Below, one piece after another: positions 12,301-38,485 of a DNA stretch of 64,000 nt (position 1 is the stretch's first letter; each line of letters opens with the position of its first letter). The position numbers and the translations under genes were made by a program. The notes beneath the pieces were generated by a model. The model was not told the DNA's origin. It saw only the letters and a program-made list of their open reading frames with translations, and searched no databases. Source of the stretch: Alphaproteobacteria bacterium (GTDB lineage: Bacteria > Pseudomonadota > Alphaproteobacteria > Rs-D84); the NCBI GenBank assembly GCA_031555055.1, contig JAVBUT010000008.1, forward strand, positions 3,354 through 67,353, read 5' to 3'.

Positions 12301-12363
12301 TCAGTGTCAGTGTCAGTGCCAGTGGAAGTGTCAGAAAGACATTAATCCACTGACACTGACACT
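12301..12363. repeat. Periodic hairpin, CAGTGY 6-mer family
   Basis: TCAGTGTCAGTGTCAGTGCCAGTGGAAGTGTCAG ... CACTGACACTGACACT. Lies between the HAD gene start and the rpoC stop. Confidence 0.85.
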
Positions 12364-16496: not shown

Positions 16497-16557
16497 ATCG
16501 TGATTCGTGAACCGTGATTCGTGACTCGAATTACGAATCACGAATTACGAATCACGA

Positions 16558-21274: not shown

Positions 21275-21340
21275 TAGTGACAGTGACAGTGACAGTGCCA
21301 GTATTTTGGGATTTCCCCACTGACACAGACACTGACACTA
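21275..21340. repeat. Periodic hairpin, GTGACA/CAGTGY 6-mer family
   Basis: TAGTGACAGTGACAGTGACAGTGCCAGT ... CCACTGACACAGACACTGACACTA. The right arm contains the rplJ TAG stop. Confidence 0.88.
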
Positions 21341-22047: not shown

Positions 22048-22108
22048 ACGTGACTCGTAATTCGTGATTCGTAATTCGAGTTACGATTCACGAGTCACGA
22101 ATTACGAC
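22048..22108. repeat. Periodic hairpin, GTGATTC 7-mer family
   Basis: ACGTGACTCGTAATTCGTGATTCGTAATTCG / AGTTACGATTCACGAGTCACGAATTACGAC. Abuts the rplA TAG stop. Confidence 0.9.
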
Positions 22109-24459: not shown

Positions 24460-24620
24460 AGGGATCAGGAATCAGTCAAAAGGAATCAGGAATTAGTAGG
24501 GGCGCATATTTGCGCCCTCTTTATTTTTGACTGGATTGCCACGTCGCTGACGCTCCTCGCAAAGACGGATTTGTGCTTAATCGCTAATTCCTATCGACTA
24601 ATTCCTAATTCCTGATTCCT
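24460..24620. repeat. Composite: TGATTCC-family periodic hairpin with two other palindromic elements nested in its loop
   Basis: Arms at 24460-24496 and 24582-24620. REP TAGGGGCGCATATTTGCGCCC at 24495-24517. GACTGGATTGCC..CTCGCAAAGACGG element at 24529-24568. Confidence 0.85.
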
Positions 24621-24686
24621 AAAAAAAAGGCTTGCGCCGGCAATGGCTTTTTTTCTACAATCGGTTAACAGGAGAGATTTTGCAGT

Positions 24687-25357: not shown

Positions 25358-25508
25358 GGGATCAAAATGAAAAATGAAAAATGAAGAATGAAAAATTAGA
25401 TTCATTTATCATGACATTTTTCTCAAGACAAGGAAACAGGTAAACAAAGATGAACAAACTAATTAAATCATTTTTCATTCTTCATTTTTCATTTTTCATT
25501 TTGATCCC
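25358..25508. repeat. Perfect 39-bp inverted repeat (AATGAAA 7-mer family) with a 73-nt loop holding the virB9 RBS and ATG
   Basis: GGGATCAAAATGAAAAATGAAAAATGAAGAATGAAAAAT (25358-25396) is the exact reverse complement of 25470-25508. Confidence 0.95.
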
Positions 25509-26925
25509 ATTTGTATGCAATGCAAATGGCGTGCAAGAGGCTTGGGATAACCCGAACGCCAACATGGCCGCTGGTTCTGTAAAACCCGGATATGCCCAGC
25601 TGACCTGGTCGACGGGCGCGGTTCTGCCTATCAAATTGCGCAACGGAATGGTCACCATGGTAAATCTGCCCAATGGCGAAGAGATCGTCGACGGCGTTGT
25701 CGGAAACCAGGATTTGTTCGACTTTGATCCGCAAAAAAACGGGCGCAGCATGTTCATAACCCCCGCCGGCAGCAATCAGGGTGCAGACACTAATCTGATC
25801 GTAACCGGAAAATCCGGAAACAAATATATTTTCTATCTGCGCAGCGAGCCCGCCAACAGCTCTGAGATCACATATTCCCAGGTTGATATCGTACTGGACG
25901 GAAACTCTACACTGCCCGGCACAACCGGCTCTAATGCACAGTACGCCGGCATGAATTCCATATTTAAAAAGGCTTCCACTGGCGCCGGCAGCATGGTTGG
26001 CGTTGACGGCGAAGATTACGGCTGGATAAAATCGATGAAAATCGATCCGTCGGAATTCCGTTTCGATCTGGACATATTCGTTCCAAATCCGGACGACTAT
26101 GTAATCGCACCGGAACGCGTGTGGCGTGATAGAATCTTTACATACATTGACTTTGGCGACAAGGTTATCGCAATGACCCAGCGTCCTGTTGTATCGCTGT
26201 TGGTCGAAGGCGGCGAATCCCCGGTCGGATTCCGCACAGACGGCCAAGACGGCAGACTGTTGATAGTAGAAGCCGTGGGCGACATGGTTCTGCGCAGTGG
26301 ACAACGTATCGTATGCATCAAGAAACGTGAAAAGCCGTTCCTGATCGCGGATACCAACAGCGTTATGGCCCTGGCCGAAGCGAACGTCGCACGCAGCATG
26401 ATGTCCAGCCAATCGCTGAACAATGTCGCATACGGCGATATGCAGATGACACAGACACTGGGCGTGCAACAAATGGGCTATGGATATGCCGCACCGATGA
26501 TGATGCCGACATCCGGAACATACGGTGGATCAACGACGGCCGGCCTGGTGATGATACCGACAGAAAGAAACACAGCCGGCGCATATCTGCCACAAACAAA
26601 CATTCCGCTGATCAGCAGCAACCAAGCCGGTGTCGCGGTTGAATTAAAATCCGACACATCAGTCAAGGCATTGAATGATTACTGGACAGGATTATTGGCA
26701 AAGTTCAGCGGCGATGACGGCAAAGGCGTTCTGACGCCATACAAGAACAGCGTGTTCTTTGCGGTTGATGAACAAGGCGTCGGCGATCTGGGCGACGCTG
26801 CGACATCTGCGCGCCTGTACCGTCTGCGTATCGGTCCGATGTCTGATATCGACAGCGCACAAAAACTGTGCGACCAACTGTTAAAGTTCAGCGGCGCCAG
26901 CTGTCACGTGGTGAGAATACAATAA
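25450..26925 (+). CDS. virB9: VirB9/CagX/TrbG-family T4SS protein with C-terminal SPOR domain
   Basis: Signal peptide MNKLIKSFFILHFSFFILIPFVCNA. VTMVNLPNGEEIVDGVVGNQDLFDFD...TNLIVTGKSGNKYIFYLRS (VirB9 N-domain). RIFTYIDFGDKV...PVVSLLVEGGESPVGFR (C-domain). Tail LYRLRIGPMSDIDSAQKLCDQLLKFSGASCHVV (SPOR-like). Confidence 0.85.
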   Translation: MNKLIKSFFILHFSFFILIPFVCNANGVQEAWDNPNANMAAGSVKPGYAQLTWSTGAVLPIKLRNGMVTMVNLPNGEEIVDGVVGNQDLFDFDPQKNGRSMFITPAGSNQGADTNLIVTGKSGNKYIFYLRSEPANSSEITYSQVDIVLDGNSTLPGTTGSNAQYAGMNSIFKKASTGAGSMVGVDGEDYGWIKSMKIDPSEFRFDLDIFVPNPDDYVIAPERVWRDRIFTYIDFGDKVIAMTQRPVVSLLVEGGESPVGFRTDGQDGRLLIVEAVGDMVLRSGQRIVCIKKREKPFLIADTNSVMALAEANVARSMMSSQSLNNVAYGDMQMTQTLGVQQMGYGYAAPMMMPTSGTYGGSTTAGLVMIPTERNTAGAYLPQTNIPLISSNQAGVAVELKSDTSVKALNDYWTGLLAKFSGDDGKGVLTPYKNSVFFAVDEQGVGDLGDAATSARLYRLRIGPMSDIDSAQKLCDQLLKFSGASCHVVRIQ

Positions 26926-26984
26926 ACGTGAAACGTGAATCGTGAATCGTAATTCGAATCACGAGTCACGAATCACGAATTACG
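26926..26984. repeat. Periodic hairpin, GTGATTC/GTGAATC 7-mer family
   Basis: ACGTGAAACGTGAATCGTGAATCGTAATTCG / AATCACGAGTCACGAATCACGAATTACG. Fills the virB9/virB10 gap. Confidence 0.9.
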
Positions 26985-26989
26985 AAAAA

Positions 26990-32574: not shown

Positions 32575-32635
32575 CTCGTGATTCGTGATTCGTGATTCGT
32601 GACTCGAATTACGAATCACAAATTACGGTTCACGA
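32575..32635. repeat. Periodic hairpin, GTGATTC 7-mer family
   Basis: CTCGTGATTCGTGATTCGTGATTCGTGACTCG / AATTACGAATCACAAATTACGGTTCACGA. The right arm contains the lspA TGA stop. Confidence 0.9.
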
Positions 32636-35152: not shown

Positions 35153-35989
35153 CTACAATTTTTCTGCAATTTCTGCGAACTTTTCCGGTGATAGCTCTTC
35201 GGCACGCTCACGTCCGCTCAGACCAAACTGTGACCAATCGACGCCGGGCATAATTCCGCGAATCATCTTGCGCCGCTGGCCGAACAGTTTCGCGGTCAAG
35301 GCTTCGATTTTTTCTAATTCCTGATTCCTGGCTGCTGATTCCTTGGGCACAATCTGCACAACAGCACTTTGCACCTTGGGCGCGGGAAAGAATGCGGTGT
35401 TCGGAACATTGAATAAAATCCGTGCGTCCGCGACCATTGCCGTCAAAACCGCCAAGCGACCGTAATGTTCGTCACCGACGCGCGCGACAATACGCATCGC
35501 CACTTCGCGTTGGAACATCAAGGTCAATGACGTGATTCGTGATTCGTGATTCGTGATTCGTTCTGCCATAATATGCAACCACCTTATCAACAGTTCCGTA
35601 CCAACATTGTACGGCAGATTGGAACAAACCGCCCAGTTCCCGGTTCCGAATTCCCAGTCCCCATTTTTCAACGCATCGCCAAAAATAATTTCCAAGCGAC
35701 CGTCGGCGGCCATGGCGATTTTTTCCAATATCGGCGCAGTGGCTTTATCCTTTTCAATCGCGATTACATGTTTTGCACCCGCCAATAATAAAGCGCGCGT
35801 CAAACCACCCGGGCCCGGCCCAACTTCGACCACGGTAATATTTTCAATATCCGGCACGGCGCGTGCGATCTTGCCCGTCAGATTCAAATCAAACAGGAAA
35901 TTCTGGCCGAATTGCTTTTTCGGTTCCAACCCCGCGTCACGCATCATTTCCGACACCGGCGGCAATGATTCTAATTGTTTATTTACCAT
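35153..35989 (-). CDS. rsmA: 16S rRNA (adenine1518/1519-N6)-dimethyltransferase
   Basis: KKQFGQNFLFD, VVEVGPGPGGLT, SNLPYNVGT, LMFQREVA, FFPAPKV. Carries two in-frame 7-mer repeat tracts. Confidence 0.9.
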   Translation of the reverse strand: MVNKQLESLPPVSEMMRDAGLEPKKQFGQNFLFDLNLTGKIARAVPDIENITVVEVGPGPGGLTRALLLAGAKHVIAIEKDKATAPILEKIAMAADGRLEIIFGDALKNGDWEFGTGNWAVCSNLPYNVGTELLIRWLHIMAERITNHESRITSLTLMFQREVAMRIVARVGDEHYGRLAVLTAMVADARILFNVPNTAFFPAPKVQSAVVQIVPKESAARNQELEKIEALTAKLFGQRRKMIRGIMPGVDWSQFGLSGRERAEELSPEKFAEIAEKL

Positions 35990-36684
35990 TTTTCCGCCTG
36001 ACGCTGACTCATTTGCATCTTTATTGCTATTTGGTCTTCAGCAACCTTGTACATTTTCTTGGATGCCATCTTAAATAATACGTTAAAATCAGCCAGCTGT
36101 ACTTTAGATAATGTTTTCAAAAAGTTCACATTATACGACGTCATATAAAAATTCATCAAACGATTTAACATTTGTGTATCTAGATTTTTTGAGAACACAC
36201 CAGCTGGTTTTTTATCTGATAAATATTCAATAAAGTGTGACATTACCTTGGAATATTGTTTAGATATATAATCTTGGGATTCCGCTTTTATAAAAGATTT
36301 TTTTATGGCCATGAAAATATTTGCGGAATCTATTTTTTTATCAAAAAGTTCATCCACAATATGTGCGGATAATTCATCCAAAAACATTAATAACGCAAAT
36401 TCATACGGATTATTAGCATAGGAAAAAGATAACATGTCCCGATTATGCAAATGATGCAGTTCATGCACCAATGTCTTTTGTCTTATATCGCCCAATCTTT
36501 TGGCTAAATCCAATGCATATGAACGATGTATGGGTGAAATTTTGTCAGATACATAAAAAGTATATAGCTCTATTTCTTTAGTTCCAATATTAATCTTGGC
36601 CGGTGCCAACGGAATGCCATTTTTAATATCTTCAATCAGTTTATCATCTATAAAAATATCTTTTTCAATTATTTTTGGTGTCAT
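35983..36684 (-). CDS. Low-GC hypothetical protein with HExxH motif (233 aa)
   Basis: LVHELHHLHNRD, with a downstream DELSAH. Overlaps the recR stop (ATGA) and the rsmA start (7 nt). GC is clearly lower than in its neighbours. Confidence 0.55.
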   Translation of the reverse strand: MTPKIIEKDIFIDDKLIEDIKNGIPLAPAKINIGTKEIELYTFYVSDKISPIHRSYALDLAKRLGDIRQKTLVHELHHLHNRDMLSFSYANNPYEFALLMFLDELSAHIVDELFDKKIDSANIFMAIKKSFIKAESQDYISKQYSKVMSHFIEYLSDKKPAGVFSKNLDTQMLNRLMNFYMTSYNVNFLKTLSKVQLADFNVLFKMASKKMYKVAEDQIAIKMQMSQRQAEKW

Positions 36685-37277: not shown

Positions 37278-38399
37278 TTAATGAAACACATAGCTGTCAA
37301 TGCCGGTGGCGCTGGCATTATTTTTTAATTTTTGGGCCGATCCTTCGGACAATCCGTTTGCGCGCACGCGAAACATCCCATTGGGCGCCTGCTCTATCAT
37401 TGTGCTGACCCCCAGTGCATTTTTAACTTTATTCTGCTGGGCGGTGGCGGCCGATTTGGATGAAAATGCGCCGAACTGGACCCCGGAACCGCCGGATTGC
37501 ACCGTGACCGGCACGGGTGTCTTTTGCGGCGGTGGCGCAGAATAAGCTTCTTCATCAGTTTCGTCATCATAAGAATATTTCTGCAACGTCGGTGCGGCGC
37601 CAACCTTGACCAGTTCGAATCCCTTGTTCAGCATGCGGACAGACGCCGCCGCGCGAACATCCTTGGTGGACGCGCCCAGGACGACGGACATCAAGTGTTT
37701 GTTTCCGCGCCGCGCCGTCGCAACCAGCGAATATTTCGACTTGTTCGTGTATCCGGTTTTCATACCGTCACAGCCCGGATAAGTTTCCAGCAACCGATTT
37801 CCGTTATTGTATGTTTTGCCATTATACGTCCATGACTTGATTCCGAAATATTTCCAGTATTGCGGAAAATGTTTATACACTGCCATAGACAGCAACGCGA
37901 TATCGCGCGCCGTCGACAAATGATCATCGTCCGGCAGACCGGACGAATTCGCAAAGTTTGTCTTCGACAGTCCGATTTCGTTCGCGACATGCGTCATCAG
38001 CGACGCAAAGTTTCCTTCTTTGCCACCCTTTAAATTTTCGGCCAGCACGCGCGCAACGTCGTTCGCGCTGTGCACGGCAAGCGCCTTGATCGCGTCTTCG
38101 ACCTTGATCTTTGATCCCGCGGCCAGCCCCAGTTTAACCGGCGACGCATTCGCGGCGGATTGCGACACGATCAGATAATCATCCAAGTGCAAGCGTCCGT
38201 GTTCCAGCGCGTCGAACGTCAGATACAGCGTCATAATTTTGGTCAATGACGCCGGATAGTTCAGATCGCTGGCGTTTTCCTGGTACAGTACCTGGCCGGT
38301 ATCCATATCCGCGACCAAGGCCGCCCGATAATCCGCAGCATGCGCCACAGAAATGAAAAATGAAAAATGAAGAATGAAAAATGTAATTAGTTTTCTCAT
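37278..38399 (-). CDS. D-alanyl-D-alanine carboxypeptidase (S11, PBP5/6-like) with C-terminal SPOR domain
   Basis: SLTK, HSAN and KTGYT active-site motifs. Tail VQFGAFSSKSAATAQ...MFRVRANGLSEGSAQKL. Signal peptide MRKLITFFILHFSFFISVAHA. Confidence 0.88.
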   Translation of the reverse strand: MRKLITFFILHFSFFISVAHAADYRAALVADMDTGQVLYQENASDLNYPASLTKIMTLYLTFDALEHGRLHLDDYLIVSQSAANASPVKLGLAAGSKIKVEDAIKALAVHSANDVARVLAENLKGGKEGNFASLMTHVANEIGLSKTNFANSSGLPDDDHLSTARDIALLSMAVYKHFPQYWKYFGIKSWTYNGKTYNNGNRLLETYPGCDGMKTGYTNKSKYSLVATARRGNKHLMSVVLGASTKDVRAAASVRMLNKGFELVKVGAAPTLQKYSYDDETDEEAYSAPPPQKTPVPVTVQSGGSGVQFGAFSSKSAATAQQNKVKNALGVSTMIEQAPNGMFRVRANGLSEGSAQKLKNNASATGIDSYVFH

Positions 38400-38485
38400 G
38401 AACAAAATGATACAAAAAATTCGACACACGGGTCAATGGATAAAACAGTATTAATTTTTCATTCTTCATTTTTCATTTTTCATTT
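38351..38485. repeat. Perfect 32-bp inverted repeat (AATGAAA family) with a 71-nt loop holding the dac start codon
   Basis: AAATGAAAAATGAAAAATGAAGAATGAAAAAT (38351-38382) is the exact reverse complement of 38454-38485. Confidence 0.95.

Follow-up and report, generated by a model that had tools for sequence, protein, structure and literature searches.

The window, the whole 64,000-nucleotide stretch of DNA that was analysed, carries on its minus strand an rsmA/ksgA gene (35153..35989) for the 16S rRNA A1518/A1519 dimethyltransferase. According to the ORF list and its translation the reading frame is intact over 278 aa, and the product scores 206 bits against TIGR00755 (cut-off 171). The host is a small gut alphaproteobacterium with a genome of 0.89 Mb, assembled as 887,658 bp in 10 contigs with 47% G+C. 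A 233-aa ORF without Pfam match (35983-36684, minus strand), which contains an HELHH motif, separates recR from rsmA and shares 7 nt with the start of rsmA; in the relatives examined rsmA directly follows recR without this ORF. An alignment-based AlphaFold2 model of RsmA has a mean pLDDT of 85.9, and its best match in the PDB is KsgA of Rickettsia bellii (4jxj; TM 0.89, rmsd 1.9 Å).

RsmA carries three translated tracts of 7-nt periodicity, all located in surface loops of the model. Tract 1, at site 1, is a perfect heptamer array at 35531..35561 on the minus strand (period 7, 4.4 copies, 100% match, TRF score 62). Its coding strand reads (ACGAATC)x4.4, in codons GAA CGA ATC ACG AAT CAC GAA TCA CGA ATC ACG, and is translated as E143-RITNHESRI-T153; the plus strand reads (CGTGATT)x4.4. 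The array is thus the 7-mer repeat that had been noticed at 35530-35561 from the sequence alone, and the translation confirms its position between the NLPYN and LMFQREV blocks. The plus-strand unit GTGATTC contains TGA, so that only the minus strand is open at this site. By DSSP of the model, tract 1 is the loop joining helix 127-142 to strand 152-160. In 4jxj an 8-residue gap faces MAERITNH of the window protein. Among 100 relatives, the modal length of this loop is 5 residues shorter than in the window, with a range from 8-9 residues shorter to 9 longer; the tract adds 2 aa relative to the same-genus genome G004 and 5 aa relative to the modal loop of the family.

Tract 2, at site 2 (35316..35343, minus strand), is a decayed array of the GGAATCA family (AGGAATC AGCAGCC AGGAATC AGGAATT), translated as K216-ESAARNQE-L225. 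TRF delimits it at 35317-35343, with period 7, 3.9 copies, 70% match and a score of 33. It is located between strand 208-215 and helix 222-236 of the model, a region which we interpret as the linker leading to the C-terminal domain. The earlier note had placed this repeat at 35325-35350, a few bases off, and had held that segments of equivalent length and similar sequence in orthologs without such repeats would make the periodicity coincidental. Tract 2 does show no net length change compared with orthologs, whose loops are of similar length. Nevertheless, it differs from (GGAATCA)x4 at only 4 of 28 positions, and 39 loci of the genome come equally near to this template while none does in five triplet-shuffled genomes; tract 2 is therefore a real decayed member of the GGAATCA family, far beyond chance periodicity. 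As the same note had also held, tracts 1 and 2 both fall in segments that vary between KsgA orthologs: they correspond to length-variable loops in the ortholog alignment, and the mapping onto a KsgA structure that it had proposed places them in loops of the RsmA model superposed on 4jxj.

The third tract, absent from that note, lies at site 0 (35633..35662, minus strand; window sequence GGGGACTGGGAATTCGGAACCGGGAACTGG). It is a decayed heptamer tract, GGGACTG GGAATTC GGAACCG GGAACTG on the coding strand, translated as G110-DWEFGTGN-W119. Sixteen of its 23 lag-7 comparisons are matches, a value reached by 0.25% of 8714 coding windows of 30 nt. In the model, site 0 is the loop 110-118, which precedes strand 119-124 leading into NLPYN. 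Sites 0 and 1 enclose a host segment of 69 nt (35564..35632, minus strand; A120-A142), which from translation and model comprises strand beta4, the catalytic NLPYN motif and the next helix, and whose core, CSNLPYN..WLH, measures 54 nt in all lineages.

Blocks 111-120 and 141-150 of the model, which cover site 0 and much of tract 1, have a mean pLDDT of 69 each, the lowest values of the catalytic domain. In E. coli KsgA, contacts with rRNA have been reported for Asn117, Phe124, Gln141, Arg147, Lys155, Arg159, Arg221-Arg226 and Arg248 (PMC8216452). We transferred these residues to the RsmA of the window by aligning the NLPYN, MFQ and RRK motifs, and on this alignment they appear to map outside residues 110-119, 143-153 and 216-225. 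The tracts occupy low-confidence loops devoid of published contact residues and therefore look like tolerated passengers. On the basis of the structure model and the published contact list, all three would be neutral for KsgA.

These tracts belong to a much larger population. TRF detects 316 period-7 arrays in the genome and 20 in a block-shuffled version, compared with 41 and 16 for period 8, and about 45 of the period-7 arrays lie in the 64-kb window. Array length peaks at 30-35 nt, a typical array measuring about 31 nt or about 4.4 units, and 117 of the 194 arrays scoring at least 40 have 4.x copies. The dominant units are AAAAATG, AATCAGG, AAATCAG, AATAGTC, AATGACT and AATCACG; the arrays form a handful of unit families related to RAATCAN. 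Inverted pairs number 46 in the genome, with arms either adjacent or about 50-82 nt apart, and arrays in intergenic DNA are often paired in this way.

The degenerate state of tract 2 and site 0, together with ortholog loops of similar length, could suggest chance periodicity in ordinary variable loops, or else an artefact of assembly. Against the former stand perfect period-7 arrays of at least three copies, of which the genome has 48 and the shuffle none, the 39 template matches of tract 2 against none, and the position of site 0 in the top 0.25% of coding windows; against the latter stand the intact rsmA frame and the independent assemblies of relatives, which carry arrays at the same sites. 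We give this explanation virtually no weight.

Several pairs of the window illustrate the diversity of layouts. Tight palindromes made of two adjacent inverted arrays of the GAATCAC/GAATTAC family are found at 16498-16557, 22049-22107, 32576-32627 and 26924-26986. They occupy short intergenic gaps, that at 16498-16557 lying between the rpoB stop and the ribosome-binding site of rpoC, and two unit variants often alternate in their arms, giving a period of 14. Elsewhere, inverted AAAATGA/TCATTTT arrays surround about 70 nt containing a start codon (25364-25502 and 38351-38485). Their downstream arm encodes the hydrophobic core of a signal peptide, FFILHFSFFI, and both loci share a variant unit, AGAATGA, at a mirrored position. 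About 15 genes of the genome have a pair bracketing the start codon in this way. A hexamer version of the same architecture, with inverted TCAGTG/CACTGA pairs, occurs at 12301-12363 and 21276-21339, and period 6 is itself in excess genome-wide (77 vs 6 in the shuffle).

The complete genome G004, assigned to the same genus (716,531 bp, 36.6% G+C), shows no period-7 excess, with 50 period-7 and 46 period-8 arrays. The two genomes therefore differ both in G+C content (36.6% vs 47%) and in the heptamer excess, which is present in the window genome only. Among 837 crude ORFs, 305 had no tblastn match in G004, and some genes expected in the core were among them; this reflects either strong divergence of the two lineages or a loose grouping of the genus. 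With so many ORFs unmatched (305/837), the comparison of gene content with G004 was too noisy and nominated no array factor.

Translation of arrays is widespread in this genome. Inside crude ORFs we counted 129 arrays, read on the stop-free strand and giving the recurrent peptides ESRITNH, KSEIRNQ, ESGIRNQ and FFIFHFS. At least 52 in-frame arrays lie in conserved genes, with both flanks conserved in the array-poor G004. Net length change at 52 arrays flanked in this way ranges from -9 to +13 aa with a median of +2, which indicates that arrays overwrite variable segments more often than they are cleanly inserted. Among arrays scoring at least 40, units with stops on both strands are found 4 times deep in coding sequence and 35 times in intergenic DNA, whereas units open on one strand are found 46 times deep in coding sequence, 27 times near ORF ends and 74 times in intergenic DNA. 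The use of the stop-free strand, which had been pointed out for tracts 1 and 2, is therefore a rule that applies across array families.

The 30-mer of tract 1 has identical copies in ruvB, der and xerD, all in the same register and in frame. The ruvB array is private to the window genome (G000), where 31 nt have replaced about 22 nt of ancestral sequence; at the der site, five relatives carry arrays of other units. Identical same-register 30-mers in rsmA, ruvB, der and xerD, together with the patch replacement in ruvB, argue for copying rather than independent slippage.

We then compared the rsmA sites among the nearest genomes, which are metagenome-assembled and labelled Rickettsiales, Alphaproteobacteria or Candidatus Enterousia. 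Period-7 arrays near rsmA are present in a subset of lineages only; most lineages have none, same-genus genomes included, and several relatives are devoid of any array at sites 0 and 1. Several lineages have arrays of other units at site 1, in the same position and register: GAACCAC units in L137, ending in the ATCACG-TC junction of the window; CGCCTCA and CGCCTTA units in L138 and L048; CCATCGT and CCATCAT units in L139 and L004; and TAATTGC units in L012. Since the site of tract 1 bears arrays in several lineages, tract 1 was not recently inserted in this lineage alone. At site 2, L002, L012, L048, L140 and L143 have other arrays, and L018 and L031 have GC-rich palindromic inserts. No homolog above 78% identity emerged from a search of 5.8 billion proteins, so that no close relative displays an array-free allele of the window lineage. 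In a KsgA tree built without the repeat columns, which was poorly resolved, array presence required 6 changes, no better than with shuffled labels; one ancient origin and repeated gains are therefore not separable on this tree.

We considered whether a discrete mobile element, of the miniature inverted-repeat type or akin to Rickettsia palindromic elements, was moved by a transposase and recently inserted in the rsmA of this lineage. Identical 30-mers at four loci would fit such an element, as would the private ruvB array and the patchy distribution of the GAATCAC family, present in 8 of 121 family genomes and 7 of 18 genera and absent from the same-genus genomes G001-G004. Nevertheless, arrays occupy the rsmA sites of many lineages, and in L137 both unit family and register are shared with the window. 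Moreover, we see neither target-site duplication nor conserved flank, net length change is irregular (-9 to +13 aa) with no fixed insert size, what the pair encloses as its 'interior' is the catalytic segment of rsmA itself, and the presence of the Y1 transposase family does not follow array load. Recent insertion of such an element therefore appears unlikely to us.

The genome does encode a RAYT-like Y1 transposase, outside the window (contig C8:258794-259327), which adjoins dnaA, scores about 24.9 bits with PF01797 and has HLH and YxxNPV motifs. We rejected it as the mover of the arrays: its presence shows no correlation with them, and PF01797 is absent from the array-rich genomes G005 and G006. 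More generally, no enzyme or mobile-element gene was found to track the arrays. The RAYT-like gene is preceded by GC-rich palindromes, the hairpins GCGACCTTGTCCCAAGGTCGC, and not by heptamer arrays, and it is likely the mover of GC-rich palindromes rather than of heptamer arrays. In the window, GC-rich palindromic elements (such as TAGTAGGGGCGCATATTTGCGCCC) are nested between or beside heptamer arrays at 24460-24622. In relatives such elements are read in frame in the rsmA loops, at site 1 in L007, at site 2 in L018 and L031 and at site 0 in L138 and L048, adding up to 43 residues at three loops. A reverse transcriptase is also encoded outside the window (contig C1:5-1150; PF00078, 47.7 bits, IGNLCSQ motif, YSDD), and its sequence resembles those of diversity-generating retroelement enzymes.

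In eight relatives (L139, L004, L137, L012 and L140-L143), the site-0 array is the reverse complement of the site-1 array. Arm complementarity reaches 21/25 to 36/38 bases in these genomes, compared with control maxima of 11.5-14.5; the arms are built from at least seven different units. RNAalifold recovered the long-range stem between the two sites unaided. Paired cells make up 83.8% of this stem, compared with 58.7% after shuffling (a value as high was obtained in none of 500 shuffles) and 32-50% when the partner was slid; the set consists of relatives knowingly chosen for arrays at both sites, an ascertainment that does not inflate the slid control. Compensatory change on both sides is observed at 16 of 16 pairs. 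On the aligned sequences, two translated arms thus covary around the catalytic segment of the enzyme. No complementarity between sites 0 and 1 was detected in L138, L048 and L007. Where the complement of a unit contains a stop, one unit is substituted to remove it (TGA to TGG in L137, TGA to TGC in L142). In L137, the TGG of the upstream arm is mirrored as its complement in 4 of the 5 units of the downstream arm, without any coding reason there.

In the window itself, when site 0 and tract 1 are set in the register seen in the relatives, 10 of 16 positions of the stem form Watson-Crick pairs; in the best register 11 of 18 do so, which 4.3% of control segments reach. Under a strict local score, their ungapped complementarity was not significant (5.5; median of controls 6). 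Because TGA occurs in the complement of GAATCAC, an in-frame upstream arm cannot remain perfect, and it has decayed. Site 0 is likely the remnant of the inverted partner of tract 1.

Strong covariation of the arms across eight lineages is what would be expected of a selected structure within rsmA that regulates expression, whether a hairpin in the mRNA or a cruciform in the DNA, and intergenic pairs around start codons have a similar spacing of about 50-80 nt. If pairing were selected in the mRNA, G:U cells should exceed A:C cells. On the sense strand of the relatives' rsmA stem there is no such excess (6 G:U vs 7 A:C cells), and counts over the whole genome show no clear bias (54 vs 39); G:U not being commoner than A:C, we see no sign of selection on the mRNA. 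Furthermore, the upstream arm of the window has decayed to 10/16 pairs in an intact gene, several relatives lack arrays at these sites altogether, and mutational homogenising of the arms would yield the same covariation without selection. A selected structure is therefore distinctly improbable in our opinion, and a DNA-level process fits the covariation of the arms better than selection at the RNA level.

Phase-variable contingency loci are typically surface or host-interaction genes. Since a 7-nt unit is not divisible by three and tract 1 has no mismatch, slippage by one unit might be thought to switch the KsgA frame, and the inverted repeats around the 69-nt segment could allow recombination between arms to invert the catalytic segment. 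However, tract 1 has only about 4 units, the same arrays are found in dozens of housekeeping genes (ruvB, der and xerD among them) where switching would be harmful, and no open frame is conserved when the core is read in reverse complement. We regard such a switch as very improbable. The idea of a dual-coding invertible core likewise finds no support in coding potential, its reverse complement having stops in most lineages.

We propose that the rsmA tracts are translated copies of the genome's heptanucleotide arrays, carried as passengers in loops, and that an inverted pair has its arms at sites 0 and 1; we estimate the probability of this reading at about 80%. Arrays would arise or be copied all over the genome, and those surviving within genes would be the ones that preserve the frame, use the strand without stops and lie in loops that tolerate them. 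Three such loops of rsmA would be occupied, tract 1 making the loop that follows the NLPYN helix about 5 residues longer than the modal loop of the family. Sites 0 and 1 would be the two arms around the catalytic beta4-helix segment, complementary in relatives while the unit differs by lineage. In the window, the downstream arm would have remained perfect, identical to the copies in three other genes, and the upstream arm would have decayed.

We infer a mechanism acting on DNA by which the arms remain alike and arrays are copied from one locus to another. A candidate would be template switching between arms in shifted register combined with microhomology-guided copying of patches between loci; because the arms are periodic, template switching could occur in any register. 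In E. coli mutagenesis, quasipalindrome correction by template switching during replication makes the arms of imperfect inverted repeats alike without selection. It is known as a mechanism of point-mutation hotspots in short quasipalindromes and, to our knowledge, has never been described as keeping periodic arms of 31 nt across lineages or over spacers of about 70 nt. By analogy, this process would account for the mirrored variant units and for the spread of TGG between the arms of L137.

A bolder proposal, which we put forward tentatively and at somewhat less than even odds, is that the rsmA tracts are the visible part of a self-propagating system at the DNA level. Such a system would write or copy arms with 7-nt periodicity, each of about 31 nt, as inverted pairs with a spacing of about 50-80 nt on both sides of any host sequence, and would actively homogenise them so that they stay complementary. 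If true, coding DNA could contain a covariation-conserved 'structure' that does not serve the gene, and the sequence enclosed could be a start codon with a signal peptide or, equally, a catalytic core.

Heptanucleotide repeats have been known for decades and regarded as intergenic curiosities. We have found no description of so many in-frame arrays in the interior of housekeeping proteins, of array sites that are conserved while their units are replaced, or of two translated arms that covary on either side of a catalytic segment. With in-frame arrays in no fewer than 52 of its conserved genes, this genome of less than 1 Mb provides a natural map of permissive loops. Covariation of arms in the gene of an essential-type enzyme is direct evidence of a process, mutational or selective, acting on DNA or RNA pairing in a coding sequence, and it makes the origin of the repeats testable by comparison of lineages and by replication or template-switch assays. 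On a more practical level, recurrent peptides such as ESRITNH, KSEIRNQ and ESGIRNQ can mislead homology searches and the annotation of repeats and domains in metagenome-assembled genomes.

Several known systems resemble these arrays in part. REP and REPIN elements, associated with RAYT (Y1) transposases (Bertels and Rainey 2011, PMC3116915), are likewise short inverted pairs dispersed in intergenic DNA, and one RAYT-like protein is encoded here; however, REPs have no internal 7-nt periodicity. Rickettsia palindromic elements are palindromes of about 150 bp encoding a conserved peptide, with ten families and 44 copies in R. conorii (PMC10969869). The earlier note had drawn an analogy with them, and it holds for in-frame persistence: in both cases repeats are read in frame in unrelated housekeeping genes of a small alphaproteobacterial genome, at positions tolerated by the fold. 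It does not extend to membership, because the rsmA tracts are not discrete palindromic insertions. Instead of a self-contained palindrome of about 100-150 bp, tract 1 is a single arm of 31 nt with 7-nt periodicity and no adjacent inverted copy, its partner lies 69 nt away, and the pair encloses host sequence.

TAACTGA direct repeats, found in marine Beggiatoaceae, some Cyanobacteria and Bacteroidetes as about 170 sets per genome of 2-6 copies (MacGregor 2015, PMC4679880), are also heptamer arrays with a patchy phylogeny and no evident mechanism of transfer, and within ORFs they too occur only in the stop-free orientation. As opposed to the arrays described here, which comprise many units and inverted pairs, they consist of a single unit with almost no inverted copies, and their copies in ORFs lie mostly at protein ends or in hypothetical proteins rather than in internal parts of essential housekeeping proteins.

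Of the known kinds, the one nearest to these arrays is that of the heptanucleotide long simple-sequence repeats, GGGAATC in Xanthomonas and GGGGA(C/T)T in Nostoc, described by Rehm et al. 2015 (PMC4692102), who also review the general excess of heptameric repeats and the heptanucleotides of Calothrix. In Xanthomonas, GGGAATC arrays prefer four units and are intergenic and sometimes inverted (PMC4692102). The likenesses comprise a 7-nt tandem unit at many loci per genome, a preference for about four units, mostly intergenic positions with some inversion, and variation in length and sequence between close species at orthologous loci; the AGGAATC family of the window is one base away from the Xanthomonas unit. 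The Xanthomonas and Nostoc repeats are G-rich, have been proposed to form quadruplexes and occur less often than expected in coding sequence, whereas several of the families here are A/T-rich, half of the strong arrays touch ORFs, at least 52 are in frame in conserved genes, and inverted pairs are the rule, with arms that co-vary.
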